Of a DNA stretch of 64,000 nt, positions 4,559 through 62,602 are shown one piece after another. Made by a program: the position numbers and the translations under genes. The stretch spans positions 153,512-217,511 of the forward strand of contig CAWJYZ010000003.1 of the NCBI GenBank assembly GCA_963847225.1, given 5' to 3'. The notes under the pieces were generated by a model that saw nothing but the letters and a program-made list of their open reading frames with translations, was not told the DNA's origin and did no database searches. This DNA is from an uncultured bacterium. Its GTDB lineage: Bacteria > Chloroflexota > Dormibacteria > Aeolococcales > Aeolococcaceae. Position 1 is the stretch's first letter. Every line of letters begins with the position of its first letter.

Positions 4559-4604
4559 AGCCCTTCGAGAGCCCCAGCGAGAAGGGCTGCAGGAGGTGAC
4601 GGCC

Positions 4605-5292
4605 ATGACGGGAGTCGTCTCGAGACCGCGGGAGGGGGCGGACCGGCGCCGCTGGTTGGCCCTCGTGTTCATCGCCCTCGCCCAGCTGCTACAGCCCACT
4701 CCAGGCGGGCCTCGCCTTCCTTCCCATGACCGTCGCCTCGCAGTCGGCCTGGCTCATCGCCCGCCGCCTCATGCCGCGGGTGCGGCCGCGCCATCTCGTC
4801 GGTCCCGGGCTCCTCGCCGCCGCCATTGGGATGCTTCTCCTCACCCAGCTGCACGCGGGGAGCGGCTACTTCGCGCAGGTCCTCCCCGCGGAGCTTCTCC
4901 TCGGCGCGGGGCTCTCCTGCGCCATGGTGCCGGCATTCAGCCTCGCCACCCTGGGGGCGGAGATGCGCCAGGCCGGGGTGGCCTCGGCCGCGGTGATGAC
5001 GGCGCAGCAGGTGGGCGGCTCGATCGGCACCGCCCTTCTCAACACGGTCGCCGCGGGCACCACGGCCGCCTATCTGATCGGCCACGGCGCGGGTGCGGCG
5101 GCGCAGCTGACCGCGCTCATCCACGGCTACACGGCGGCCACCGCCTGGGGTGGCGGCTTCCTTCTCGCCGGTGGCGCGGCCGCCCTCCTCCTCATCGACG
5201 CGCCGCGTCCGGCGGCGCAGCATGGGGCGGAGCGGCCGGAGCAGAGGCTCCAGCGCCCGGGTGCGACCGAGGCGCTCCGCGAGTCCGCGTGA
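4605..5292 (+). pseudogene. MFS (DHA2/EmrB-QacA-like) transporter with internal deletion and frame change
   Basis: Frame 0 (4605-about 4695) encodes an MFS N-terminus (RRRWLALVFIALAQLLQ). Frame +1 from about 4700 to 5292 encodes the C-terminal third (LQAGLAFLPMTVASQSAWLIARRLMPRVRP...GGSIGTALLNTVAAG). That C-terminal part aligns closely to the intact paralog at 30530..32059 (LAAGLTFLPQTLAIAVGSQVSSRLIPRLGARP...GGSLGLAVLATLAAD). About 265 aa (TM2 to roughly TM9) are missing. Confidence 0.7.
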
Positions 5293-7076: not shown

Positions 7077-7219
7077 GGTCAGGCCATGGTGCCAGAGACG
7101 TCGATCGGGCGTACCCAGATTGACAACAGATCGGCGCGGAGACGGCCAGCTTGCTCGCCACGTACCGTCTTCCCAAGGTCACGGCGCAATTCTGGCGCCT
7201 CTTGCGCTATAATGGCGCT

Positions 7220-7462
7220 ATGGCCACCATTCAGGTGCGTGAGGTCCCGGAGGAAGTCCACCGAACCTACCGAGCGAGAGCCGCAGCTGCCGGGATGAGC
7301 CTGACGGAGTACCTACGGGCCGAGCTCATCCGCAACGCCAGCATGCTCACCCCCGCTGAGGTCGCCGATGAGGTCGACGCTGAGATCCGCCATGAAGGGT
7401 CTGAGGGCTTCGCCGTCCGCTCCTCGGCTCGTATCGTCCGAGCCGATCGCGCCTCACACTGA
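7220..7462 (+). CDS. vapB: type II antitoxin, ribbon-helix-helix (VapB/FitA-like)
   Basis: 80 aa from the in-frame ATG at 7220 (MATIQVREVPEEVHRTYRARAAAAGMSLTEYLRAELIRNAS). A TATAAT sits 6 nt upstream (7208-7213), suggesting a leaderless transcript. A PIN-domain ORF follows immediately. Confidence 0.7.
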   Translation: MATIQVREVPEEVHRTYRARAAAAGMSLTEYLRAELIRNASMLTPAEVADEVDAEIRHEGSEGFAVRSSARIVRADRASH

Positions 7463-7469
7463 CAGAGGA

Positions 7470-7862
7470 GTGGCGGTTCTCGACGCCTCGCTCGTCGTCG
7501 ACGCGCTGGTGGTGTCTGGGGGGGCCGGGTGGCGCGCCAGGAAGGCGCTTCGGGAAGAGGCGGTGCTTCAGGTGCCTGCGATCTTTTCGGCAGAGGTTAC
7601 GTCAGCCCTCCGAGGCTTGCTCCTCCGTGGGGAGCTCAGCCCGATGCGTGTTGGTGCCGCCCGCCGCCGGCTCCGTCGCATTCGAACGGTCCAATATGCC
7701 CTCGAGCCGTTCGCCGATCGAGTGTGGGCGCTCCACGCCAACCTCACTGTCTACGACGCGTGGTACGTCGCCCTCGCCGAGCGCCTGGGAATGGACCTGC
7801 TGACATCCGACCGTCGGCTGGCGTCCGCCCAGGGGCCGCGCTGCCGGGTGCGCGCCATCTGA
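7470..7862 (+). CDS. vapC: PIN-domain toxin VapC
   Basis: The probable GTG start at 7470 lies 8 nt after the antitoxin stop. The N-terminus VAVLDASLVVDAL contains the conserved PIN Asp, and the C-terminal part contains Asp residues (...WYVALAERLGMDLLTSDRRL). The start is uncertain; the ORF track shows an ATG at 7368 that would overlap vapB. Confidence 0.65.
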   Translation: MAVLDASLVVDALVVSGGAGWRARKALREEAVLQVPAIFSAEVTSALRGLLLRGELSPMRVGAARRRLRRIRTVQYALEPFADRVWALHANLTVYDAWYVALAERLGMDLLTSDRRLASAQGPRCRVRAI

Positions 7863-9005: not shown

Positions 9006-9227
9006 ATGGCTGATGTTCTCGTGCGCGACCTGCCGGAGGAGGTCCTCGCCACGCTCGATCTGCGCGCGGCGCAGCTGGGAATCTCGCGCAGCGAGTACTT
9101 GCGGCGCAGGTTGACTGCGGACGCCACCGCGTCTAGCGGGCCGGTCTTCGTCGAGGACCTGGAGCGCTTTGCGCTGACCTTCGCGGACCTGGCCGACCCT
9201 GAGGTTTTGGCCCAGGCTTGGCGGTGA
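9006..9227 (+). CDS. vapB: type II antitoxin, ribbon-helix-helix (VapB/CopG-like)
   Basis: 73 aa ([36 protein letters not shown]). Two palindromic TGATATCA-like boxes sit immediately upstream at 8988-9005. The reading frame overlaps the downstream PIN gene. Confidence 0.7.
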
Positions 9228-9640
9228 GCACAGGCTGGCTCATCGACAAGTCTGCGCTCGTCCGTCTGCCTGACAGTCCGGATGCGGCCCAATGGGCAAG
9301 GCGAATCGAGCGCGGGATGGTGCGGATCACCACTCTGACCCGGCTCGAGATCGGCTATTCGGCCCGGAGCGCAGCGGATCTGCGATCGGGGTTCCGGCGG
9401 GCTCCCCTCACGACGATGCCGGTGGAGTACCTCACCCCAGCCGTCGAGGGCCGCGCGTTCGAGGTCCTCAGCTTGCTCGCCGACCGCGGGCAACATCGAG
9501 CGCCGTCAATCCCCGACCTGATCGTGAGCGCCGCCGCGGAGCTCGGAGGATTGAGCGTCCTCCACCTGGACAAGGACTTCGAGCTCATTGCCGGGATCAC
9601 GGGCCAACTCATGGAGCGCCTTCAGCTCTCCGCGGTCTGA
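9218..9640 (+). CDS. vapC: PIN-domain toxin VapC
   Basis: 140 aa ([10 protein letters not shown]...[26 protein letters not shown]), a classic PIN toxin architecture. It overlaps the antitoxin by 10 nt. Confidence 0.75.
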
Positions 9641-13679: not shown

Positions 13680-14588
13680 TCACCCACGGCGCGTCGGTTC
13701 CGGCGCGGGCGGCGAGGGTACCCGCACGGTGAGCCCGTGGGCCAGAACCGTGACGGTGAGGGATGAGCCCTTCGCCATGACCTCGCCGTCCACCTCGCGG
13801 AGCAGCGGACGGGCAGAGTGAATCTCGACGTGGCGAGCGCGATGGTGCTCGAGGAGGGCGTCGCTGGCCGAGCTTCCGACGATCACCCGCCATCCCACTC
13901 GCGCCCAGCTGGGCAGGTCCGGCGGTGCGAGGATGGCCACATCGAGGAGGCCGTCGTCGAGGCGCGCGCTGCGGAGGATGGCGAAGCCGCCGGGGAGAAG
14001 CCCGGCGTTGCCCACGAAGATCGACCTCGCCCGGCGGCGCAGCTCCGGTCCGCCGTCGAGGCTTATCGAGAAGGCCGTGGCCGGTCCTCCGAGGTGGATC
14101 AATCCGGCCAGCGCGTATCCCACCCAGCCGAGGTGCCCCTTGACGACGGCCGGGGTGCCTCGAACCACCTCGGCATCGAGCCCGATGCCGGCCATGGCGA
14201 CGAAGGCCCGGCCCTCGGCAAGGCCGATATCGATGCGCCGATCGCCTCCCCTCAATGCGGCCTCCAGAGCCGGCCCGAGCCGGCGGGGCAGGCCGAGAGC
14301 CGTCGCCGCGATGTTGGCAGTGCCGAGGGGAACGATGCCGAGCGCGATACCCGTGCCCTGGAGTGCCTCGGCGCAGGCGCGCACGGTGCCGTCCCCGCCG
14401 GCGGCGACGACCAGCTCGGCGCCGGCGGTGATCGCCCGGCGCGTCGCGAGGAGCCCGTCGCGGGGTCGGGTCGTCTCGAGGATGAGCGGCTCCCACCCCG
14501 CCCCGCGCGCCGCGACGCGGCAGGCGCGGCGGAGCCACGCCGGGTCGTCCACCCTGGTGCGGTTGATGACGAAGGCAACACGTGGCAT
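13680..14588 (-). CDS. diacylglycerol kinase catalytic-domain lipid kinase (YegS/BmrU family)
   Basis: 302 aa. The DAGK_cat motif ELVVAAGGDGTVRA is present, together with the ...GIVPLGTANIAATALG loop. Confidence 0.8.
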   Translation of the reverse strand: MPRVAFVINRTRVDDPAWLRRACRVAARGAGWEPLILETTRPRDGLLATRRAITAGAELVVAAGGDGTVRACAEALQGTGIALGIVPLGTANIAATALGLPRRLGPALEAALRGGDRRIDIGLAEGRAFVAMAGIGLDAEVVRGTPAVVKGHLGWVGYALAGLIHLGGPATAFSISLDGGPELRRRARSIFVGNAGLLPGGFAILRSARLDDGLLDVAILAPPDLPSWARVGWRVIVGSSASDALLEHHRARHVEIHSARPLLREVDGEVMAKGSSLTVTVLAHGLTVRVPSPPAPEPTRRG

Positions 14589-17072: not shown

Positions 17073-19980
17073 ATGGTCCGCGCAACACGATTCGCCGAGG
17101 TGGATAGCCGCGCGCACCTTCCCGAGGGAGAGCGCGTCATCCTCGATCTCTGGAAGCGCACCGACGTCTTCCGGCGCAGCCTCGAGCTGCGCAAGGACGG
17201 GCCGCCCTATGTCTTCTACGAGGGTCCGCCGACCGCCAACGGAGCGCCGGGGCTCCACCACGTCGAGGCGCGGTCCTTCAAGGACCTCTTTCCCCGCTAC
17301 CACTCCATGCGGGGGCGCTTTGTCGAGCGCAAGGGGGGGTGGGACACCCATGGTCTCCCGGTGGAGCTGGAGGTCGAGCGGAAGCTCGGGATCAATGGGA
17401 AGCGACAGATCGAGGAATACGGCGTGGCCCGCTTCAACGAGCTCTGCCGGCGGTCGGTCCTCGAGTACATCGACGACTGGGAGGCGCTGACCGACCGGAT
17501 GGGCTTCTGGATCGACGTGCGCCATCCCTACCGGACCCTGGACAGCACCTACATGGAATCGGTGTGGTGGAGCCTCAAACAGCTCTGGGAGCGCGACCTC
17601 CTCTATCGGGGCTACAAGGTCGTCCCCTACTGCCCGCGCTGCCAGACCTCCCTCTCGTCGCACGAGCTCTCGCTCGGATACCAGGACGACGTGCCCGATC
17701 CCTCCGTCTACGTCAAGTTCAAGCTCACCGGGGATGACGGGAGCTCGCTGCTCGCCTGGACCACGACCCCCTGGACACTCCCCGGCAACGTGGCCCTCGC
17801 TGTGCACCCGGACGCCGCCTATGTCACGGTGGAGCAGAAAGGGGAGAGGCTGATCCTGGCTCGGGACCGCCTCGAGGTTCTCGAGGGTCCCTACGAGATC
17901 GTCGCCGAGCTGCCGGGACGCGATCTGGTGGGCCGCAGCTATGAGCCTCTCTTCACCGACATGCTGCCCGAGGGCCGGGCCTTCGTCGTCCTCGCCGCCC
18001 CCGAGCTGGTGTCGCTGGAGGAGGGGACCGGCGTGGTGCACACGGCGGCCGCCTACGGGGAGGCGGACCTGGGCCTCTGTCAGCGCGAGGGAATCGCCAT
18101 CCGTCACGTCGTCGGCCTCGACGGCCGTTTCCTGGAGGGACAGAGCCGCTACCGCGGCCTCTTCGTCAAGGAGGCGGACCCCAGGATCGTCGCCGACCTC
18201 CAGGCGGAGGGCCGGCTCTACCGGGCGGGGGAGATCCGCCACTCCTATCCCTTCTGCTGGCGCTGCGACACTCCGCTCCTCTACTACGCGCTCAACTCCT
18301 GGTTCATCCGCACCACGGCCCTCAAGGCCCAGCTCATCGCCAACAACGCGAGCGTGCGCTGGCAGCCGGCCCACGTCCGCGAGGGCCGCATGGGCAACTG
18401 GCTCGAGAACCTCGTCGACTGGAACCTCTCACGGAGCCGCTACTGGGGGACGCCGCTCCCCATCTGGGAGTGCGAGGGCTGCGACGCCAAACGATGCGTT
18501 GGCAGCACCGCTGAGCTCGGCCTCAGCACCGACGACGATCTGCACAAGCCTGGCATCGACGAGGTCACGCTGCCCTGTCCGAGCTGTGGCGGGTTCATGC
18601 GGCGCGTCTCCGACGTCATCGACGTCTGGTACGACAGCGGCGCCATGCCCTTCGCCCAGCACCACTATCCCTTCGAGAACCAGGAGCTTTTCAGCCGCCG
18701 CCTTCCGGCCGACTTCATCTGCGAGGCGATGGACCAGACGCGGGGCTGGTTCTTCTCTCTGCTCGCCGAGAGCACGCTCCTCTTCGCCCAGCCCGCCTAC
18801 CGCAACGTCATCTCGCTGGGCCTGGTGCTGGGCAAGGACGGCCGGCGGATGAGCACGCGCCTGCGCAACGCGCTCGATCCGATGAAGACCCTGGAGGAGT
18901 TCGGCGCCGACGCCACCCGCTGGTATTTCTACAGCGCGGTCACCGCGGGGAGCGACTACAAGGTGGGACCCGAGCTCGTCCGCGACGTGGTCCGCCGCTT
19001 CCTGCTCACCCTCTGGAACACCTACAAGTTCTTCTGCGACTACGCCCGCGTCGACGGTTGGGATCCCGAGGCTCCGGCTCCGCCGGTGCGACAGCGGCCC
19101 GAGCTCGACCGCTGGTGCCTCGCCCGCCTCGGAGAGTGCGTCACCGGGGTTGGCGAGGCCCTCGACGGCTACGACGCCACCCAGGCCACGCGCCTCATCG
19201 AGGCCTACGTCGAGGACCTCTCCAAGTGGTACGTGCGCCGCTCCCGGCGCCGCTTCTGGAAGTCCGCGGAGCCCACGGATGCCGACAAGCGCTCCGCCTA
19301 CGCGACCCTGTACACGGCGCTCACCACCCTGGCGCGGCTCATCGCCCCCTTCATGCCCTTCATCAGCGAGCGCATGCACCGCAACCTCACCGGCCACGAG
19401 AGCGGCGATGCGCTGGCCGGCGCACCCGAACTCGGTGCACCTCACCGACTACCCGGAGGCGGACCTGGCGTGGGCGGACGCGGCGCTGGTCACGGAGATG
19501 GCGAGGCTGCGGCGTCTCGTCGAGGACGGTCTCGGCGCCCGCGAGACGGCGGGCATCGGTGTCCGCCAGCCGCTGCCCCTGGCGACGGTCCGCGGCCGGA
19601 GCTTGCCCGCGGAGCTCGAGGCCATCTTCGCCGAGGAGCTCAACGTCAAGGCCGTCGGCTACGCGACCCCCGGCGAGGGTGAGCACGACTCCGTCACCCT
19701 GGACACAACGATCACCGACGCCCTTCACCTCGAGGGGATCGTCCGCGAAGTGTCGCGCAAGGTCAATGAGCTGCGCCGTCAAGCCGGGCTCGCCCTCGAC
19801 GACCGCATCCAGCTCCTCATCGAGGCTGACGGCGACGTCCGCCGCGCGGTCGAATTCCACCGCCAGCACCTCATGGCGGAGATCCTCGCGACGGCAATCG
19901 ATTTCGGGCGCCGGGAAGCGCTCAGCGAGTGGTCGGGGAAGCTGCGCGGTGAGCCCTGCTGGCTGGGCGTCGTGCGGTGA
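17073..19980 (+). CDS. ileS: isoleucine--tRNA ligase (type 2), reading frame interrupted near 19400-19425
   Basis: HIGH motif PTANGAPGLHH is present. The editing and catalytic core runs in frame 0 to about 19410. The C-terminal anticodon-binding tail (SVHLTDYPEA...DALHLEGIVREV...) continues in frame +1 to 19980. There is a deviant KMSKS motif (RMSTR) at about 18847. Confidence 0.85.
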
Positions 19981-20507: not shown

Positions 20508-21406
20508 CGTTGGTGGCCGAGCTGGAGCGGCGTCCCCGGCTCGACGTCTGGCTGGCGCGCGAGCATGGCCTGAGCCGGCATGCCGCCCAGGAGCTCATCG
20601 CCGCCGGGGGCGTTCGGGTCAACGACCGTCCCGCCAACGCCGCCCGGCGCATCTCAGCCGGCGATCGTGTGAGCGTCACGCTCCCCGCCGCGAGGGAGCG
20701 GAGCGCTGCGGTGGAGGGGCCGGAGGTGAGCCTCTCCATCGTCTTCGAGGATGAGTGCCTCGCGGTTGTCGACAAGCCGGCGGGCCTCGTCGTGCATCCC
20801 GCTCCCGGGCACCCGCACGGCACCCTCGCCGACGGTCTGCGCCAGCACGGCGCCACCTGGTCCCTCTGGGGAGGTGTGGAGCGGCCGGGTATCGTCCACC
20901 GTCTGGACCGCGATACCTCGGGGCTCCTCGTCGTCGCCAAGTCGGAGGCGGCCCACCGCAACCTCTCCGCCCAGCTCGAACGGCGCCGCCTGACACGCGC
21001 CTACTGGGCTCTGGTGCATGGCGGCTTCGCCGAAGAGAGCGGCAGCATCGACGCCCCCATCGGCCGCAGCCCCCGCGACCGCAAGAGGATGGCGGTCGTC
21101 GAGACGGGGAGATCGGCGATCACCGACTTCCAGGTGAGCGCCCGCCATCCTCGCACCACCGAGCTGGACGTGCGGCTGCGCAGTGGTCGCACGCATCAGA
21201 TCCGGGTCCATCTGGCCTTCACCGGCCATCCCGTGGTGGGCGATCCCCTCTATGGACGCCGGCGTGACGGAGCGTCGCGACTCGCCCTGCACGCGCGGCT
21301 CCTCCGCTTCACGCACCCCGCTGACGGTCGCGAGCTGTCCTTTTCGTCACCCCTCCCCAGTGAGCTCACGGCCCTTCGCGAAGCGGCGCGGGAGGGCCGG
21401 CTCTGA
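20504..21406 (+). CDS. rluD: RluA-family 23S rRNA pseudouridine synthase (RluD-like)
   Basis: An S4 domain is followed by the catalytic HRLDRDTSGLLVVAK motif and THQIRVHLA. The GTG start overlaps the lspA stop (GTGA). Confidence 0.85.
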   Translation: MTLVAELERRPRLDVWLAREHGLSRHAAQELIAAGGVRVNDRPANAARRISAGDRVSVTLPAARERSAAVEGPEVSLSIVFEDECLAVVDKPAGLVVHPAPGHPHGTLADGLRQHGATWSLWGGVERPGIVHRLDRDTSGLLVVAKSEAAHRNLSAQLERRRLTRAYWALVHGGFAEESGSIDAPIGRSPRDRKRMAVVETGRSAITDFQVSARHPRTTELDVRLRSGRTHQIRVHLAFTGHPVVGDPLYGRRRDGASRLALHARLLRFTHPADGRELSFSSPLPSELTALREAAREGRL

Positions 21407-21408
21407 GC

Positions 21409-22014
21409 ATGGGGAACGCTGTCCAGCGACCGCGGCTCTTTGCCGGACCAGGACGGCTCGTCATCATCTCCGGTCCCAGCGGGGTGGGCAAGGACACCGT
21501 GCTCCGCGAGCTCTTCCGGATCGCGCCCTGGCTCAACTATTCGATCTCCTACACCACGCGGCCCCCACGTCCCGGGGAGGTGGACGGAAAGTCCTACTCC
21601 TTTGTCGATGAGGCGGAGTTCGAGGCCCTGCGCGAGCGCCATGAGTTCCTGGAGTACGCGAGGGTGCACGGCCATTGGTACGGGACCTCGGAGAGACGCG
21701 TCCGAGAGAGCCTGGAACGCGGTGAGGACATCGTGCTCAAGATCGACGTCCAGGGGGCGGCCTGGATCCGCCCCCGGGTCGAGGGGGCCATCTTCATCTT
21801 CCTGCTCCCGCCGAGCCGCGAAGAGCTGCGCCGCCGCCTCGAGGAGCGCGCCACGGAGTCCGCGGAAAGCCTCGAGCTGCGCTGGGCCGCCGCCGAGGCC
21901 GAGCTCGGCGAGCGAGACCGCTACGATCATCGTGTCGTCAATGACGACGTGGAACGCGCCGCCCGCGAGATCCTCGCCATCGTCGAGCACAGCCGGCCGA
22001 AGGAGAGAGCGTGA
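21409..22014 (+). CDS. gmk: guanylate kinase
   Basis: P-loop ISGPSGVGKDT and the guanylate kinase signature YSISYTTRPPRPGEVDGKSY. Confidence 0.9.
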   Translation: MGNAVQRPRLFAGPGRLVIISGPSGVGKDTVLRELFRIAPWLNYSISYTTRPPRPGEVDGKSYSFVDEAEFEALRERHEFLEYARVHGHWYGTSERRVRESLERGEDIVLKIDVQGAAWIRPRVEGAIFIFLLPPSREELRRRLEERATESAESLELRWAAAEAELGERDRYDHRVVNDDVERAAREILAIVEHSRPKERA

Positions 22015-23332
22015 CAGCTGAGGATCAGCCGGTCGGCGGGGAGCTCGAGGGCCGCCGCATCCTCGTCGGGATCGGCGGTAGCGTCGCCGCCTACAAGGCC
22101 GCCGATCTCGTCGTCCTCCTGCGCCGGCGCGGCGCCTCGGTGCGGGTGGCGATGACCCCCTCGGCGACCCGCTTCATCGCCCCCCTCACCCTGCGCAGCC
22201 TCTCCGCCAACCCGGTCGTCGCCGACCTCTTCGAGCCCACCGAGACGGGCCACGGCATGGAGCACCTCTCGCTGGCCCAATGGTCGGAGCTGCTGGTGAT
22301 CGCCGCCGCCTCCGCCAACCTCATCGCGCGTCTCGCCCTCGGCCTGGCCGACGACGCCGTCACCGCCACCGCGCTCGCCTCCCCCGCCCCGCTCCTCATC
22401 GCCCCGGCCATGGAGACGGCGATGTGGGAGCATCCGGCGACAGCGCAGCACGTGGCCACGCTCCGCGACCGGGGAGCGGTCCTGGTCGGTCCGGAGACGG
22501 GCCGGCTGGCGAGTGGCAGGGAGGGCTTGGGACGCATGGCGGACCCCGCGGCAATCCTGGACGCCGCGGTGAGGCTCCTCCGAGAGCGGCTTCCCCCGGC
22601 CTCGTCGTGAGAGCGGTGCCGCGCCCAGCTGCCGCAGGCCGTCCTGGGGACGCCAGCTCGGGCGGCTCTCTCGCCGGCCTCCGTGTCGTCGTGACCGCCG
22701 GCGGCACCCGGGAAGCCATCGATCCGGTGCGCTTCATCGGCAATCGCTCGAGCGGCAAGATGGGCAACGCGCTCGTCGCCGCCTGCCTCGAGGCCGGGGC
22801 CACCGTCGAGCTCATCACGGCGGCTTCTCCTCCGCCCCCCGCCCCAGGCCTTCGGGTGAGCGCCGTGGAAAGTGCGGCCCAGATGCAGCGTGCCGTCTGG
22901 GAGGCCCTGACGCGAGCCGATGTCCTGCTGATGGCGGCCGCCGTCGCCGATTACCGGCCCCGGGAGGTCGCCCCCCGGAAGCTCAAGAAGAGCACCTCTC
23001 CGCTCCGCATCGAGCTGGAGCCCACGGAGGACATCCTCGCCTCCCTCCGTGAGCATCCGCAGCGGGCGGGCAGCCTGGTGGTGGGCTTCGCCGCCGAGAC
23101 CGACGAAGCGGAGGCGAATGCCGCCGCCAAGCTGCGCGAGAAGGGGATCGACCTCATCGTCCTCAATGACGTCTCCCAGCCAGGCATCGGGATGGGCAGC
23201 GACGACAACGCCGTGACGGTCCTGGATGGCGGCGGCGTCGTGGCCGTCACCGGACGGATGCCGAAGGCCGACATCGCACGCCGCCTGGTGGCCCTCGTCG
23301 CCGAGCGCGTGCCGCCCACGGGAGGCGGCTGA
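22011..23332 (+). CDS. coaBC: bifunctional phosphopantothenoylcysteine decarboxylase / phosphopantothenate--cysteine ligase, frame interrupted near 22600
   Basis: The CoaC flavoprotein domain occupies 22011-22610 (ILVGIGGSVAAYKA). The CoaB domain (LRVVVTAGGTREAIDPVRFIGNRSSGKMG) lies in the -1 frame from about 22660 to 23332. A C5 homopolymer at about 22594-22598 is the likely indel site. Confidence 0.8.
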
Positions 23333-23383
23333 GGGGAAGAAGAGGCTGAGGGAGGGGGAGTGTCTTCTCGGAGCGCTTTCGAG

Positions 23384-23410
23384 GAATGAGGAACGCTCTG
23401 TTCCTCATTC
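23384..23410. repeat. perfect 11-bp-stem hairpin GAATGAGGAAC-gctct-GTTCCTCATTC, member of a small palindromic repeat family
   Basis: An exact inverted repeat seen directly in the sequence. The same GTTCCTCAT(T) core recurs twice in tandem at 49619-49677. Confidence 0.7.
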
Positions 23411-23741
23411 GAGCAAGCGCCACCGCAAAGGGCGTGTGCCTCCCGCCCCCCAGCCGTCCGGCGGTGGGCGCGCCGTCGGGAGGGCGGCGTTGATCAGAAG
23501 CACACGCTGGATCGTGGTCACGAAATCGTCGGCGAGCGCCGCCTGCGCGGCCCGACCGAGCGCCGCCGACACGGGGTTCGAACCTCCGCTCGTCGACGGG
23601 CAGCCGGCACGCGCATTGCCGCCGGCCCTCGCGCATGCCAAGATGTAGGGGCTCGAACGGATGCTCCCACAGTTTGTCGTGGCCACTTGGGAAGAGGGCA
23701 GGGTGGGTGGCCTGGGTCCGCCGGATGGGACGAGGTGGAGG

Positions 23742-25836
23742 ATGACGGGGACGCTGGTAGCACCGGCACCGGTGCCGGAGGGCGACACCAGGACGGCCGG
23801 CGAGGGGGCCGCCGACGGGCACGCCACGCCCTCCCCGCGCTACGCGGACGTGGTCCCTGACACCCGCGCCCTCCTGCCCCAGGAGCGCTACACCTACCTG
23901 GTCCCAGAGGGGATGCGGGAGGAGGTCCGGGCTGGCGTGCGCGTTCGAGTGCCATTTGGCCAGCGCACGGTGCCCGGTCTCGTCATTGCGGTCTCGGCCA
24001 GGTCCGACCACACCGAGGTCCGTCCCCTGGACGCCGTCCTCGATCCCGAGCCCCTCCTCGGCGAGAACCTCCTCGGCCTCGCCGAATGGATCGCGGCCCG
24101 CTACTGCGCGCCACTCGCCGAGGTCCTCAAGGCCATGGTGCCCAAGGGTGCGCGCCCCGCTCGACCGCCGAGCGGACGCCGGCGCGGACCGCGCTCGGAG
24201 TCCGCCGCCCTCGCCGCCGCCCGGGCCACCCACCGGCGCAGCCCTCCTCCCAGGCTGACCCCGGCGCAGGCGGCGGCCGCTCGTCCGCTCCTCGAGGCCA
24301 TCGAGGCCGGCGTCCACCGGCGGGTGCTCCTCCACGGGGTGACGGGGAGCGGGAAGACGGAGGTCTACCTCGCCGCCATCGACGCCGCGCTGCGCCGGAG
24401 GAGGCAGGCGATCTGCCTCGTTCCCGAGATCGCCCTCACCCCCCAGATGATCCGCCGCTTCGCGGTCCGGTTTCCGGGCCGCCTGGCCGTCATCCACTCG
24501 GCGCTCACCGACGCCGAGCGCGCGCTCGAATGGTCCCGCGCCCGCACCGGTGGCATCGACGTCGTGGTCGGCTCGCGAAGCGCCGTCTTCGCGCCGCTCC
24601 CTCACCTCGGGGTGGTCGTCGTCGACGAGGAGGACGCCTCGGCCTACAAGCAGGACCGGATCCCGCGCTATCACGCCGTCGACGTCGCCCTCGAGCTGGG
24701 TCGGAGGGCCGGCGCTCCGGTGGTGCTGGGCAGCGCCACCCCTCGGGTGGAGACCTACTTTCAGGCCCACACCGGGGGGCTCGAGCTCACCACCATCGAG
24801 GCGCGGATCACCGGCAGGCCGCTGCCCCCCATCGAGGTGGTCGACCTGCGCGAGGAGCTTCGCGCCGGCAACCGCGGCCCGCTCTCCGAGACGCTCATCC
24901 GCGCCCTGGACCAATGCCGTGCCGAGGGCGGTCAGTCGATCCTCTACCTGAACCGGAGGGGCACCGCGACGGTCGTGCTCTGCCGCTCGTGCGGGGTGCC
25001 GCTGGAGTGCCGGAACTGCAGCGTCTCCCTTGTCTACCACGCCGGTCGGCGGCGCTGCGACTGCCATTACTGCGGCGCCTCGCGCGATCTCCCGGAGCGC
25101 TGTCCGTCCTGCGGCTCGGCGGCGATCCGTGGGCTGGGCATGGGAACGGAGCGGCTAGAGGCGGAGGTCACCGCCCTCTTCCCGGGCATGCGCCTCCTCC
25201 GCATGGACCGCGACACTGTGCAGCGGCGCGACGCGTATTTCGAGATCTACGAACGGTTTCGGGGCGGCCATGCGGACTGCCTCATCGGCACCCAGATGGT
25301 GGCCAAGGGATGGGACCTGGCGCGGGTGCGATTGGTCGGCATCGTCAACGCCGACACCTCGCTCCACTTCCCCGATTACCGGAGCGGCGAGGTGACGTTC
25401 TCCCTTCTGACCCAGGTGGCGGGGCGCGCGGGCCGGGGCGACGAGCCAGCGCGGGTGATCCTGCAGACCTATAGTCCCGAGCACTACGCGGTCCGTCATG
25501 CCGTGTCGCACGATTACCGGGGGTTCGCCCATGATGAGATCCGGGTGCGTCGCGACCACCGCTTTCCCCCCTATGCGCGCCTCGTCACCTGCACCGTCGA
25601 GTCAGGCCGATGACGGCGTCGCCGAGGCCGCCGCGCGGCGGTGCGCCGCGGATCTCTCTGCTATCCTCGGCAGCGGCGCCGGGCTCGACGTCCTCGGCCC
25701 GACCCCCGCCTTCCTGCACCGCCTTCGTGGCCAGCATCGCTGGCAGGTGACGGTGCGGGGGACGGCGATCGAGAGGGCGTTTCGACATCTGCCGAAAGGC
25801 CGCGGCTGGAGCATCGACGTCGACCCCGCCATGTAG
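23742..25836 (+). CDS. priA: primosomal protein N' (replication restart helicase PriA), frame interrupted near 25600
   Basis: The 3'BD N-terminus, Walker A HGVTGSGKTEVYL, and a Cys4 zinc-binding region (CRSCGVPLECRNCSVSLVYH...CDCHYCG...CPSCGS) are all present. The C-terminal tail (AFLHRLRGQHRWQVTVRG...DVDPAM) continues in frame +1 (25498-25836) after a stop at 25613. The start is either the ATG at 23742 or at 23661. Confidence 0.85.
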
Positions 25837-27926: not shown

Positions 27927-29153
27927 TCAGCTGGCCGCCAGGTCCCTCGCAGCGTCGGGGAGCGTCCGCTCCTCAGTGGAGCGGTTGTCGCGGTTGGCCC
28001 GGGTCTCCGGCACCACCCGCGCCGCCAGCTCGTCGATGGCGGCGCGCAGCTCGCGCAATCCCGTGCCGCGGGTCGCCGAGATGCGCAGGGCGCGGCAGCC
28101 GGCGATCTCCTCGAGGCCATCGACGACCGTGTCGAGGTGGGCGGCGTCGCGGCGGTCGCACTTGTTGGCGACGAGGAGTGTCGGCTGATCGCACCCCATC
28201 TGCGCCAGGGTGGTCAGAACGGTCCTGAGCTGGCCGGCGCACTCCGGATGGGAGACGTCGACGATGAGGGCGAGGAGATGTGCGCCCCTCACCTCCTCCA
28301 GGGTGGCGTTGAAGGCTTCGACGAGCTCGGTGGGAAGCGCCTGGATGAAGCCGACGGTGTCGGTGAGGATCAATCGCCGCCCAGAGGCCAGGCTCAGCAG
28401 CCGCGAGGTCGGGTCGAGAGTGGCGAAGAGGAGGTCGTCGGCGAGGACCTCGGAGTTGGTCAGGCGGTTGAGGAGGGTTGACTTGCCGGCGTTGGTGTAG
28501 CCGACGAGGGCGCAGGACGCGAGGGGGACGTCGCTCCGCGCCTGGCGGCGCGTCCGGCGCTGGCGCTCGAGGACCTGCAGCCGCTGGCGAAGCCGGGCGA
28601 TGCGCTGCCGGATGAGCCGGCGGTCGACCTCGATCTGGGTCTCCCCGGGGCCTCCACGCAGGCCCACGCCGCCACGCTGCCGCTCCAGGTGGCTCCAGCC
28701 GCCGGCGAGACGGGGCAGGAGATGTTCCAATTGGGCCATCTCCACCTGAATCTTCCCCTCCGCGGTCACCGCCCGGCGGGCAAAGATGGCGAGGATGACC
28801 TCGGTCCGGTCCAGGACCGGGACACCCCAGCGCTCCTCGAGATTGCGCTGCTGGCGGGGACTGAGGGGATCGTTGACCAGCACCGCCGGGCTCCCCAGCT
28901 CGGCGAGGCGGGCTGCGAGGGCGTCCACCGCCCCGCCGCGGAAGAAGGTCGCGGGATGCGGCTCGCGGACGGCCACCGCGCTGTGCTCGACGACGGTCGT
29001 CCCCAGCGTGCGGGCCAGCTCCTCCAGCTCGTCAAGCTGCACGTCGACGCGCTCGCGCCCTTCGCGCCCCTGGTAGGAGCCGAAGACGGCGACGTCGCGA
29101 AGAAGCTGGCCGATCCCGGGGTCGGCCCCGGTTCGGGGCGAGGTGCGTGCCAT
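27927..29153 (-). CDS. hflX: GTPase HflX
   Basis: An HflX N-domain is followed by G-motifs GYTNAGKSTLLN, DTVGF and NKCD. The start is taken at the internal Met, because the ORF-track N-terminal extension to 29861 is antisense to the phosphatase gene and non-homologous. Confidence 0.85.
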   Translation of the reverse strand: MARTSPRTGADPGIGQLLRDVAVFGSYQGREGRERVDVQLDELEELARTLGTTVVEHSAVAVREPHPATFFRGGAVDALAARLAELGSPAVLVNDPLSPRQQRNLEERWGVPVLDRTEVILAIFARRAVTAEGKIQVEMAQLEHLLPRLAGGWSHLERQRGGVGLRGGPGETQIEVDRRLIRQRIARLRQRLQVLERQRRTRRQARSDVPLASCALVGYTNAGKSTLLNRLTNSEVLADDLLFATLDPTSRLLSLASGRRLILTDTVGFIQALPTELVEAFNATLEEVRGAHLLALIVDVSHPECAGQLRTVLTTLAQMGCDQPTLLVANKCDRRDAAHLDTVVDGLEEIAGCRALRISATRGTGLRELRAAIDELAARVVPETRANRDNRSTEERTLPDAARDLAAS

Positions 29154-33459: not shown

Positions 33460-34407
33460 TCAGCTCGCACCGGCGCTCCCGAGCGCGGCGAGACGGGCCT
33501 CGGTGATGCGGATCGCCTCCGGGTTGGTGTCGACGCTGAGGTGGCGCCGGCCCAGCGCCTTGGCCGCCACCGCCGCCGTTCCCGAACCGCCGAAGAAGTC
33601 GGCGACGAGATCGCCGGGGCGGCTGGAGGCGAGGACGATGCGCTGCAGAAGGCGGAGCGGCTTCTGCGTCGGGTAGCCGGTGCGCTCCCGGCCGCTGGTG
33701 GGCACGATGGTCATCCACCAGACGTCGGTGGGAAGCTTCCCCCGCGCCGCCTTCTCGGGGGTCACCAACCCGGGGGCGAGATAGGGGAGGCGGTCGACCG
33801 CCTCGCGATTGAAGATCCATCTCTCCCCTCTCGCGTACCAGAGGATGTTGTCGTGCTTGCGGGGCCAGCGGTCCCGCCCCCGGCCGCCGTAGTCGTAGGC
33901 CCAGATGATCTCGTTGAGGAAGCGCTCGGAGCCGAAGACCTCGTCGAGAAGGAGGCGGACGTGGTGCACGGCATGATGGTCGAGGTGCACATAGATCGAG
34001 CCATGCTCGGCCAGAACGCGGCGCATGGCGACGAACCGCGGGGCCAGGAAGGCGAGGTAGGCGTCGAGGTCCAGGTCGTCGCGGTACTCGTGAGTGGAGA
34101 CGGTCTCCCAGCGGTAGGTCCGCCCGCCGAAGCCCACCCGGGTGCGCTCCCCGGCACCGGTGCGGATGGAGGCGAGCCGCTGCCGCTGCCTCGTGCCGAA
34201 GGGCGGGTCGACGTAGATGAGGTCGACGCAGCCATCCGACAGCGCCTCCAGCACCTCGAGGTTGTCGGCGAGGAAGACGCCCTCGGGGGCCTGTCCCTCT
34301 TGCGGGGCTCCTCCACAGGGTGCGGGCTCCCCCACAACAACCCTGGGATCGTCACCGATCGACACAACCTCGGGATCATCGCCAATCGGCGTTGGTTGAC
34401 GGTTCAA
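33460..34407 (-). CDS. site-specific DNA methyltransferase (beta-class N6-adenine/N4-cytosine, DPPF motif), no adjacent restriction enzyme
   Basis: Motif IV VDLIYVDPPF is near the N-terminus, and motif I DFFGGSGTAAVAAKALGRRHLSVD is near the C-terminus, which is the beta-class order. The N-terminal roughly 40 aa contain a tandem peptide repeat (IGDDPEVVSIGDDPRVVVG). Confidence 0.8.
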   Translation of the reverse strand: MNRQPTPIGDDPEVVSIGDDPRVVVGEPAPCGGAPQEGQAPEGVFLADNLEVLEALSDGCVDLIYVDPPFGTRQRQRLASIRTGAGERTRVGFGGRTYRWETVSTHEYRDDLDLDAYLAFLAPRFVAMRRVLAEHGSIYVHLDHHAVHHVRLLLDEVFGSERFLNEIIWAYDYGGRGRDRWPRKHDNILWYARGERWIFNREAVDRLPYLAPGLVTPEKAARGKLPTDVWWMTIVPTSGRERTGYPTQKPLRLLQRIVLASSRPGDLVADFFGGSGTAAVAAKALGRRHLSVDTNPEAIRITEARLAALGSAGAS

Positions 34408-42041: not shown

Positions 42042-42383
42042 TCAGGGCGCGGGCGGCGGCGCCTCCACCCACTCGATCACCCGGGCCGTGCCGTAGGCCA
42101 CGATCTCGCTCATCGACTTGCCCATCTCGGTGGAGTCGAACCGCATCATGGTGACCGCGTTGGCGCCCATGGCCGTGGCGTTCTCCACCATGCGGTCGAG
42201 CGCCTGGCGGCGGGCATCCTCGTTGAGCTTGACGTAGGCGCCGATCTCGCCGCCGGCCAGACTCTTCAAGCCGGCGGCGATATTGCCGCCGATGCTTCGC
42301 GAGCGCACGGTGAGGCCGAAGACCTGGCCCAGGGTGCGCACCACTCGGGTGCCGGGGATGTTCTCGGTTGTGGTGACGATCAT
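42042..42383 (-). CDS. ybjQ: YbjQ-family (UPF0145) protein
   Basis: 113 aa from MIVTTTENIPG, the hallmark YbjQ N-terminus. The ...GANAVTMMRFD motif is also present. Confidence 0.75.
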   Translation of the reverse strand: MIVTTTENIPGTRVVRTLGQVFGLTVRSRSIGGNIAAGLKSLAGGEIGAYVKLNEDARRQALDRMVENATAMGANAVTMMRFDSTEMGKSMSEIVAYGTARVIEWVEAPPPAP

Positions 42384-60092: not shown

Positions 60093-61334
60093 ATGACGGG
60101 CACGGCCACCCTGGCACTGATGAGCGTCGCCGAGGCGAGAGCACGGCTCCTCGAGCTCGTCGGCGCGCGTGTGACCGAGGAGGAGCAGGTCCCCCTGGGC
60201 GAGGCCGGAGGGAGGGTTCTCGCCCGCGCGGTGACGGCCGCCTGGCCGATCCCGGGCTGCGACAACTCGGCGATGGATGGCTACGCGGTGCGCGCGGCCG
60301 ACTGCGGCGGGGCCAGCCAGGCGGAGCCGCTGCGCCTTGCCGTGAGCGGCGAGGCACGCACCGGAGCCCCGCTCCGCCGCCTCCCCGCGGGGACGGCGAT
60401 GGCCATCGCCACGGGCGGCCCCATCCCCGACGGCGCCGACTCCGTGATTCCTGTGGAGGAGACACGTGAGGACGGTCCGGACAGGGTGCTCATCCTGGCC
60501 GTCCCGCGGGCGGGCGACCACGTCCGCCGCGCTGGAGGGGATGCGCCGGCGGGGACGGCTCTCGTGCCGCCGGGCCGGCGGCTGCGCCCGGTGGATCTCG
60601 CCGCCTGCGCCGCGGCGGGGGCGGCATCTGTCTGGGTACGCCGCCGGCCGCGGGTGGCCCTTCTCTCCGGCGGCGACGAGCTGGTGCCGCTGGGAGCGAC
60701 CCCCGCCCCGCATCAGGTCACGGACAGCAATTCGGTGATGCTGGCCGCGTCGGTGCGAGCAGCCGGCGGGGAGGTCGTCCCCCTGGGCATCGCCGGTGAT
60801 TCACCCGATGAGGTGCGCCGCCGGCTGGCCGGAACCGCGGGCTGCGACCTCGTCCTCACCAGCGCCGGGGTGAGCGTGGGCCGGCACGACCACGTCCGCG
60901 AGGTCGTCAGCGAGCTGGGCCGGGTCGAGGCCTGGAGGATCGCGATGCGCCCCGGCAAGCCGCTCCTCATCGGCACCCTGGGGGAGATCCCCCTGCTCGG
61001 CCTCCCCGGAAACCCGGCCAGCAGTGCGGTGACCTTCGAGCTCTTCGGGAGGACGGCCATCCTCGCCCTGCAGGGATGCTCGCGGCCGGATCGGCTGCGG
61101 GTCGCGGTGCGTGCCGGGGAGACGATGGATGCGCCGGCTCACCTCGAGACGTACCTCCGCGTGCACCTCGCCGACGGCGAGGACGGCGTTCCGGTGGCGA
61201 CGCTGAGTGGGGCGCAGACGTCGTCGATGCTGCATTCGCTCGCCGGCGCGGATGCGCTGCTCATCGTTCCCGCCGGGATGGGTCGGGTTGAGCGGGGGCG
61301 GCTGCTGGCCGCCATGGTGCTCGACGGATGGTGA
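60093..61334 (+). CDS. moeA: molybdopterin molybdotransferase
   Basis: MoeA domains are present, with GCDNSAMDGYAV, the MogA-like SGGVSVG motif, and a C-terminal MoeA domain. The start is either the ATG at 60093 or at 60120. Confidence 0.85.
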   Translation: MTGTATLALMSVAEARARLLELVGARVTEEEQVPLGEAGGRVLARAVTAAWPIPGCDNSAMDGYAVRAADCGGASQAEPLRLAVSGEARTGAPLRRLPAGTAMAIATGGPIPDGADSVIPVEETREDGPDRVLILAVPRAGDHVRRAGGDAPAGTALVPPGRRLRPVDLAACAAAGAASVWVRRRPRVALLSGGDELVPLGATPAPHQVTDSNSVMLAASVRAAGGEVVPLGIAGDSPDEVRRRLAGTAGCDLVLTSAGVSVGRHDHVREVVSELGRVEAWRIAMRPGKPLLIGTLGEIPLLGLPGNPASSAVTFELFGRTAILALQGCSRPDRLRVAVRAGETMDAPAHLETYLRVHLADGEDGVPVATLSGAQTSSMLHSLAGADALLIVPAGMGRVERGRLLAAMVLDGW

Positions 61335-62602
61335 CCAGCCCGGGGGTGCGGGTGCGCTGCTTCGGTGCCCTGCGCGACCGCCTCGGCGCGGAGCGGCTGG
61401 TGCAGGAGCCGGTGCGCACCGTCCTGGAGCTGTGGACGGTGATTACCCGTGATGCGCCCCAGATTCGCGACGCGCGCCAGCATGTTCGCGTGGCCCGCAA
61501 CCTCGCCTACTGCGATTGGGAGACCGCGCTCGAGAGCGGCGACGAGGTGGCCTTCATGCCGCCCGTCGCCGGTGGGGCGGTGGAAGCGCGCCCCGGTCCC
61601 CTGATCCGCACCGCTCTCGTCGACGAGCCGATCGACGCCGCCCGGCTCACCGCCGAGCTCCGCTCCGACGTCGACGGGGCGATCGCCAGCTTCCTCGGCG
61701 TCGTCCGCGGGTCGACGGATGGGACGGCGGTGTCGCGCCTCGACTATGAGGCCTACCCGGAGATGGCGGGCCGGGAGCTCCGCCGCATCGCCGAGGCGGT
61801 CGCCGCCCGACACGCCCTGAGCGGGCTGGCGCTCGTCCACCGCGTGGGATCGCTGGAGGTCGGGGCGGTGAGTGTCGCGGCCGTGGCTGCCGCTCCCCAT
61901 CGGGGCGCCGCCCTGGACGCCTGCCGGGAAGGGATCGAGATGGTGAAGCGCGACCTGCCGATGTGGAAGCGCGAGCACCGCTCCGACGGCGCGGTGTGGG
62001 TTGACGCTCGCGAGCTCGACCCCGCGTCCACGAAGAGCGGTCCCGGGCCGAGCCATGCCGGCTCGGAAACCGCCGACGGCGGCGCACGGCTCACCCATGT
62101 CGACGGAACCACTGGCGTGCACATGGTCGACGTCAGCGATCGTGCTCCCAGCCTGCGCGAGGCGACCGCCGAGGCGGCGGTGCGCTTCAGCTCCTCCGCC
62201 ACCCTGCAGGCGCTTCGGGAGGGCTCTGCGAAGGGCGACGTTCTGGCTACCGCCCGTTTGGCGGGGATCATGGGAGCCAAGCGGACCCCGGAGCTCATCC
62301 CCCTCTGCCATCCGCTGCCGATCACGCACGTCGACGTGCGCTGCGAACCCGACCCAGCGCTGCCGGGGGTGCGCATCACCGCGTCGGCGCGCTGCGTCGC
62401 CGCGACCGGTGTGGAGATGGAGGCGCTGACGGCGGCGGCCGTCGCCTCGCTCACCGTGATCGACATGCTGAAGGCCGTCGATGCCTGGATCGCCGTGGAA
62501 TCCGTGCAGCTCCTGGCCAAGAGCGGCGGACGCAGCGGGACCCGCCGCCGGCCGGTCACACCGGCACCTCCACCACCGGATCCGGCGCCCGCGGAGGCCT
62601 GA
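61328..62602 (+). CDS. moaDEC: single-ORF fusion MoaD (ThiS-fold, ...FMPPVAGG) - MoaE (molybdopterin synthase large subunit) - MoaC (cyclic pyranopterin monophosphate synthase)
   Basis: The first roughly 83 aa end in the GG typical of MoaD. Residues about 90-230 carry MoaE motifs (GAIASFLGVVRG, EAYPEMAGRELRRIAE, VHRVGSLEVG, MWKREHRSDG). Residues about 265-424 carry MoaC motifs (LTHVDGTTGVHMVDVS, ELIPLCHPLPITHVDV, TGVEMEAL). All three parts lie in one frame with no stops. Confidence 0.8.
   Translation: MVTSPGVRVRCFGALRDRLGAERLVQEPVRTVLELWTVITRDAPQIRDARQHVRVARNLAYCDWETALESGDEVAFMPPVAGGAVEARPGPLIRTALVDEPIDAARLTAELRSDVDGAIASFLGVVRGSTDGTAVSRLDYEAYPEMAGRELRRIAEAVAARHALSGLALVHRVGSLEVGAVSVAAVAAAPHRGAALDACREGIEMVKRDLPMWKREHRSDGAVWVDARELDPASTKSGPGPSHAGSETADGGARLTHVDGTTGVHMVDVSDRAPSLREATAEAAVRFSSSATLQALREGSAKGDVLATARLAGIMGAKRTPELIPLCHPLPITHVDVRCEPDPALPGVRITASARCVAATGVEMEALTAAAVASLTVIDMLKAVDAWIAVESVQLLAKSGGRSGTRRRPVTPAPPPPDPAPAEA

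Follow-up and report, generated by a model that had tools for sequence, protein, structure and literature searches.

We found that priA in the window (the whole 64-kb stretch of DNA analysed here; G+C 71%) is broken by one surplus base next to a GAGTC motif, and that ileS, with a lesion 6.2 kb from that of priA, is broken in a similar way. Very probably priA is intact in the organism, a member of Candidatus Dormibacterota, and the deposited extra base is a consensus error of a Nanopore-only assembly at GA(C/G)TC, with the same holding for ileS and with N6-adenine methylation as the most likely reason. One spurious base at 25598/25599, at GAGTC, would thus have shifted the last 79 codons of priA into the +1 frame and produced a false stop at 25611, while in ileS an error of the same kind would have turned GACTC into GAACTC at 19428. 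It is likely that basecalls are heterogeneous around the first G of the motif, probably because of N6-adenine methylation of GA(C/G)TC, and that the polished consensus then keeps two bases for one. Accurate reads would be expected to show CCGTGAGTC at the priA site and CCCGACTC at the ileS site.

The features of the priA region are:

23742–25597, plus strand: main reading frame of priA, supported by domain matches and by a 623-aa product in a public protein collection.
25598–25599, plus strand: surplus base of priA and actual point of the frameshift, located by blastn against L082, assembled by Logan, and L083, a contig from a JGI metagenome.
25599–25603, plus strand: GAGTC motif, which abuts the surplus base directly.
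25611–25613, plus strand: premature TGA in priA, the product of the frame error.
25600–25836, plus strand: C-terminal domain of priA (PF18074) in the +1 frame (codon starts mod 3 = 1), ending with TAG at 25834–25836.

The initial annotation had placed the stop of the main PriA ORF at 25613 and its canonical C-terminus in the +1 frame up to 25836, and both statements were confirmed. The ORF 23661–25613 (23661 is the first ATG; the public gene call begins at 23742) translates into a PriA-like protein with the C-terminal end ARLVTCTVESGR (also given as RFPPYARLVTCTVESGR), followed by the TGA. The +1 ORF 25498–25836 encodes AFLHRLRGQHRWQVTVRG...WSIDVDPAM and its stop (the end is also given as AFLHRLRGQHRWQVTVRGTAIERAFRHLPKGRGWSIDVDPAM), and the last ~79 codons of priA sit in this frame. 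The GC content of third codon positions changes phase at ~25600, the Viterbi path through codon usage switches frame at 25602/25603, and the piece 25603–25833 matches positions 16–95 of the 95 positions of the PriA_C profile (PF18074, E 1.3e-10). The main frame holds PriA_3primeBD, DEAD/ResIII, Zn_ribbon_PriA and Helicase_C in Pfam, that is, the N-terminal 3′-DNA-binding domain (PF17764, E 2.6e-24) and the superfamily 2 helicase core with its inserted Cys-rich zinc ribbon. As deposited, PriA_C is not contiguous with the helicase core, lying after the stop in the other frame; with one base removed, it is. This frame pattern is not that of a chance ORF.

The lesion could be placed exactly. In each of the alignments with L082 and L083 (88% DNA identity) there is a one-base gap at window position 25598, where both relatives have CCGT-GAGC and the window has CCGTCGAGT (in longer form, CACCTGCACCGT-GAGC against CACCTGCACCGTCGAGT); the deposited bases 25594–25603 are CCGTCGAGTC. 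Removal of either C25598 or G25599 restores Val-Ser, and the product then reads TCTVSQADDGVAEAAARR, which agrees residue for residue and in length with TCTVSHADD and TCTVSNPDD of the relatives. The surplus base lies 13 nt upstream of the TGA, and since homology of the +1 frame to the relatives begins there, the frame changes at 25598 and not at the TGA. Its context is CCGT[C]GAGTC (inserted base in brackets), with no homopolymer run.

Among the sequences compared, the interruption of priA is confined to this one. The truncated 623-aa product comes from a single contig of 1,460,957 bp in the public protein collection, where its cluster also contains two intact PriA proteins of 674 aa, those of L082 and L083. 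Of the Dormibacterota genome loci, all 21 in which this region is present have a continuous priA ORF through the junction. In 23 JGI metagenome loci, PriA and IleS, both in repaired form, give a single-segment alignment across their respective junctions, and PF18074 is listed for all of the best 120 database homologues of PriA (query coverage 90–99%, mostly ~95%). Overall, priA is uninterrupted in more than 150 relatives, none of which has the lesion. Database homology searches with the repaired PriA returned no near-identical fragment, the public protein collection contains no tail ORF beginning at 25498 or 25573, a search of JGI metagenomes for exact patterns of either priA version gave no match, and PriA relatives found there by a protein-guided scan are at most 87% identical. 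Since no other sequence of the same strain across 25598 was thus found in the protein collection, the homology searches or the JGI metagenomes, the priA call is based on comparison with relatives and on the analogous case of ileS. Two further observations concern this region in the relatives. In the closest relative (L083, 4210–5119), coaB and priA are separated by a minus-strand gene for a 248-aa methyltransferase, which the window lacks (23418–23839). The 1,979-bp metagenome contig L103 (WNFI01104099.1) has PriA segments on opposite strands around 490–500, which suggests an inverted chimeric assembly.

The features of the ileS break are:

17073–19427, plus strand: N-terminal 785 codons of ileS, with tRNA-synt_1 and with Anticodon_1 broken off at position 92 of its 148-position profile.
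19428–19433, plus strand: frameshift point of ileS, GAACTC, which is the conserved GACTC plus a surplus base, by comparison with relatives and with Logan contig L084.
19431–19980, plus strand: C-terminal part of ileS in the +1 frame, with a DUF5915 domain.

One extra base is present at 19428–19430, in the context CCC[G]AACTC (or GA[A]CTC, a change of one base to two), the deposited bases 19425–19433 being CCCGAACTC. L084 reads CACCCAACTCGG at 19428, against CACCCGAACTCGG in the window; it lacks the extra base and keeps IleS in frame. Because five relatives have GACTC (Asp-Ser) at the site, ileS most likely reads CCCGACTCGG in reality; the window would then carry one surplus base, and the k-mer contig a G-to-A miscall. 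GAACTC is also found at the homologous site in two Nanopore MAG loci, L008 and L018, so that the site is broken alike in three independent assemblies, the window included.

L084 is one of five Logan contigs (de Bruijn, or k-mer, assembly of run ERR11594399, which we infer to be Nanopore data) that match the window over 13,377 bases. There are only three differences in this length, at 19428, 19688 and 42260. L084 equals the window over 2,074 bases but for one base change and the absent extra base of ileS. At 19688, the window has GACTC and the Logan contig GCCTC; five relatives have an acidic residue there, favouring the window version. At 42260, the window has GACTC and the Logan contig AACTC. 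All three differences fall in GACTC-type sites, while GANTC makes up less than 0.5% of the compared bases, and 2 of the 10 contig ends lie inside GACTC/GAGTC. This is the pattern that heterogeneous basecalls at one motif would give.

We analysed related loci for breaks of the same kind by a protein-guided scan, in which frameshift junctions were located with proteins from short-read relatives. Eighteen junctions were found in 7 loci from Microflora Danica (MFD) MAGs of related Dormibacterota species (nine in L010, four in L018, three in L008, one each in L001 and L014, none in L005 and L011), which with the two of the window makes 20 in 176 kb of Nanopore-MAG loci. In contrast, ten short-read loci (206 kb) had none, the sole flags being at the priA/def gene boundary. 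The frameshift sites were recorded at 154, 518, 2638 and 6237 in L008, 2281 in L014 and ~655 in L001, besides nine in L010 and four in L018. The MFD MAGs were assembled with Flye and one round of Medaka from Nanopore reads only, without short-read polishing (PMC12313526), and the window probably comes from a Nanopore-only MAG as well, judging by the 1.46-Mb length of its source contig and its ENA provenance.

The junctions are strongly associated with one motif. GA(C/G)TC, GAA(C/G)TC or GA(C/G)TTC occurs in 12 of the 20, against 1.3–1.8 expected, an enrichment of ~7- to 10-fold that was reached in 0 of 20,000 random placements. Base-level alignments show GA[A]GTC, GA[A]CTC or GAGT[T]C in place of the GAGTC or GACTC of short-read relatives; the form of the priA error is [C]GAGTC, as opposed to the commoner GA[A]STC. 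(The hexamer ratio (GAANTC+GANTTC)/GANTC proved too noisy as an index of error, TTC and GAA being common codons.) The same lesion at the same motif in the assemblies of only one technology marks a systematic error, not independent mutations. Nanopore assembly errors at methylation motifs are documented, GANTC included, with GANTC/CcrM in Brucella as a case (PMC12392509). Our observations resemble these and other published errors (for example, Lohde et al., Genome Res 2024, PMC11610573; PMC12392509) in the recurrence at one short motif, in the occurrence, among relatives, in Nanopore-only, Medaka-polished assemblies and not in short-read ones, and in the presence of a beta-class adenine methyltransferase gene, a candidate, in the window. 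They differ in that the published errors are mostly substitutions, whereas here 1-nt insertions (GA[A]STC or [C]GASTC) break genes, and in that the motif is GA(C/G)TC only; also, unlike in the published cases, we infer both the methylation and the platform of this assembly.

The methyltransferase gene in question is:

33460–34407, minus strand: beta-class adenine DNA methyltransferase (PF01555), a candidate modifier of the error-prone motif.

Its best solved relatives are M.RsrI and CcrM. The protein has a DPPF motif followed by an FGGSGT motif, and the gene has a TTG start. It appears to be solitary: it lies between a mycothiol-S-transferase/DinB-like gene and a pirin gene, and no restriction enzyme gene is evident adjacent to it. 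GANTC is scarce in the window, with 92 sites against ~312 expected for this motif alone from a first-order Markov model; restriction avoidance or codon bias could account for this.

The initial annotation had attributed the breaks to systematic indel errors of long reads in a MAG, such as homopolymer errors. The first part of this holds, given the 18 breaks in Nanopore MAGs against none in short-read loci, the absence of the extra ileS base from L084 and the source contig of 1.46 Mb. The homopolymer cause was not borne out, as the contexts CCC[G]AACTC and CCGT[C]GAGTC are both tied to GA(C/G)TC, which argues for an error specific to the motif or to its methylation. Generic long-read indels, random or homopolymer-length and unrelated to motif or methylation, are accordingly an improbable source of the two insertions. 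They would share with the present case that single-base indels truncate ORFs in a long-read MAG. In their favour, 8 of the 20 Nanopore-MAG junctions, one of them in a CCCC run, lack a GA(C/G)TC-type motif, which shows that errors of other kinds occur as well, and the window itself offers only two sites, each with a ~1% chance of adjacency to the motif. However, neither insertion lengthens a homopolymer, one or both bases beside each inserted base are different from it, and the two sites adjoin the same 5-nt motif; the pooled enrichment, the three assemblies struck at one GACTC site of ileS and the confinement of every window-versus-Logan difference to GACTC-type sites also speak against generic errors.

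We likewise consider it unlikely that the mutations are real, priA and, separately, ileS being recent pseudogenes or frameshifted alleles in the sampled population. The deposited consensus contains the base, and no accurate reads contradict it at 25598. Nevertheless, such mutations would require the loss of two indispensable genes within 6 kb while 60 other genes of the window look intact. The tail of priA retains its coding signature and a close amino-acid similarity to PriA of the nearest relatives, and its lesion is found in no relative. The ileS lesion is absent from the k-mer assembly of a run that holds the same sequence, and where it recurs, at the homologous site in other species, the assemblies are all from Nanopore reads. 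If the extra base were real, PriA could come from +1 recoding close to the UGA at 25611, or consist of a shortened helicase and a C-terminal domain made separately, which we regard as very improbable; recoding of the GA[A]CTC insertion in ileS would then be common to several Dormibacteria. That programmed +1 ribosomal frameshifting, or two polypeptides, yields a functional PriA from the split gene is barely credible. With a shift at CGA-UGA-C, the product would be as long as in the relatives, and a +1 shift beside an in-frame UGA in an essential gene is superficially like that of prfB. Unlike prfB, however, priA has no CUU-UGA-type slippery context or other slippery run at the junction, and none of the more than 150 orthologues needs recoding. 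Similarity in the +1 frame, with matches of Ser and Asp-Asp, already starts 13 nt upstream of the UGA, and the start codons of the +1 ORF occur only further upstream, where the sequence has no homology in that frame. Transcriptional slippage in priA was rejected, there being neither conservation nor a slippery or homopolymeric tract. A consensus error at GA(C/G)TC in both genes thus remains the preferred reading.

A third frame error, in coaBC, had also been proposed within the same ~8 kb. The genes at this place are:

22011–22610, plus strand: coaC (phosphopantothenoylcysteine decarboxylase; 199 aa), which ends at a conserved TGA of its own (TIGR00521 positions 1–180 of 392).
22607–23332, plus strand: coaB, phosphopantothenate–cysteine ligase, 241 aa (DFP 1–186 of 186; TIGR00521 positions 183–390).

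No single ORF in the window spans the decarboxylase and ligase domains, as it would in a fused CoaBC (dfp). The GTG start of coaB at 22607 overlaps the coaC stop (GTGA). The position of the coaC TGA is kept in the closest relative, where genes of 199 and 227 aa are called separately. In ~33 related loci, mostly from short-read assemblies, coaC has its own stop and coaB follows in varying frames, often with a conserved TTG start or with an ATG directly after the coaC stop. Window positions 21305–24201, including the junction, are 100% identical in an independent k-mer assembly, Logan contig L085, in which coaB is called at 1303–2028. Judged from these comparisons, the arrangement is a genuine gene fission, and it looks lineage-specific, so the proposed frame error in coaBC falls away and two genes are broken, not three, priA and ileS, each by a single extra base. 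The split is seen throughout this Dormibacterota class (window 22011–23332; L001–L019, L027, L083, L087–L107) with varying arrangements of start and stop (GTGA overlap, TTG 14 nt before the stop, TGA-ATG). Fused coaBC was seen only in more distant loci (L020–L026), and thus persists in more distant Dormibacterota, unlike in the window. Separate coaB and coaC genes are known from Streptococcus/Enterococcus (NCBIfam coaC_strep, coaB_strep), and the two adjacent window ORFs, which divide TIGR00521 into 1–180 and 183–390, are alike in this respect; they differ from the streptococcal stand-alone models in being closest to the fused coaBC model.

To cover the rest of the window, the whole of it was segmented with a codon model, and each suspicious change of frame was checked by Pfam coverage and inspection of the ORFs. 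This frame scan and the Pfam coverage revealed no other frameshift in the 64 kb, so that the visible rate is two per 64 kb. Full domain coverage was found for murC, murB, ddl, ftsQ, ftsA, ftsZ, nrdR, htrA, lspA and rluD, and also for gmk, def, fmt, smpB, hflX, dnaK, gatCAB, dnaE, lgt and the molybdopterin genes. Candidate frameshifts were rejected at 4587/4689 and 56761/57415 after Pfam and ORF inspection, at 13725/14741 (separate DAGK and HtrA genes), at 27933/29209 (divergent hflX and phosphatase gene), at 33472 (the methylase with its TTG start) and in 41.7–42.8 kb (three small separate genes). The advice in the initial annotation to lower trust in the other start and stop calls of the window is therefore overstated. 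The residual risk of error is concentrated at the 47 GAGTC/GACTC sites of the window, where substitution errors are possible.

Several other genes of the window deserve mention. Two pairs of a FitA-like ribbon-helix-helix protein and a PIN-domain protein (VapBC-type toxin–antitoxin) lie at 7127–7859 and 9006–9637, with an alcohol dehydrogenase gene between them. A 410-aa ORF at 61328–62557 is a triple fusion of ThiS/MoaD, MoaE and MoaC, and sits in a molybdopterin cluster with moeA, a mogA-like gene and moaA nearby. The only match of the 200-aa ORF at 4690–5289, below the Pfam cut-off, is to the C-terminal third of MFS_1 (profile positions 235–347); the ORF may be what is left of a transporter, or may encode a small membrane protein unrelated to it.

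For annotation, priA and ileS are best treated as intact; the breaks would be without biological consequence, and neither a pseudogene call for these two genes nor a 'missing' C-terminal domain of PriA should be recorded for this genome. The apparent frameshift in coaBC should not be 'repaired', the split being, on the present comparisons, genuine. Public Nanopore-only MAGs of Dormibacterota appear to share the same error signature, GA(C/G)TC with one base added or miscalled, which can be searched for and corrected, and which hints at methylation of this motif across the class.
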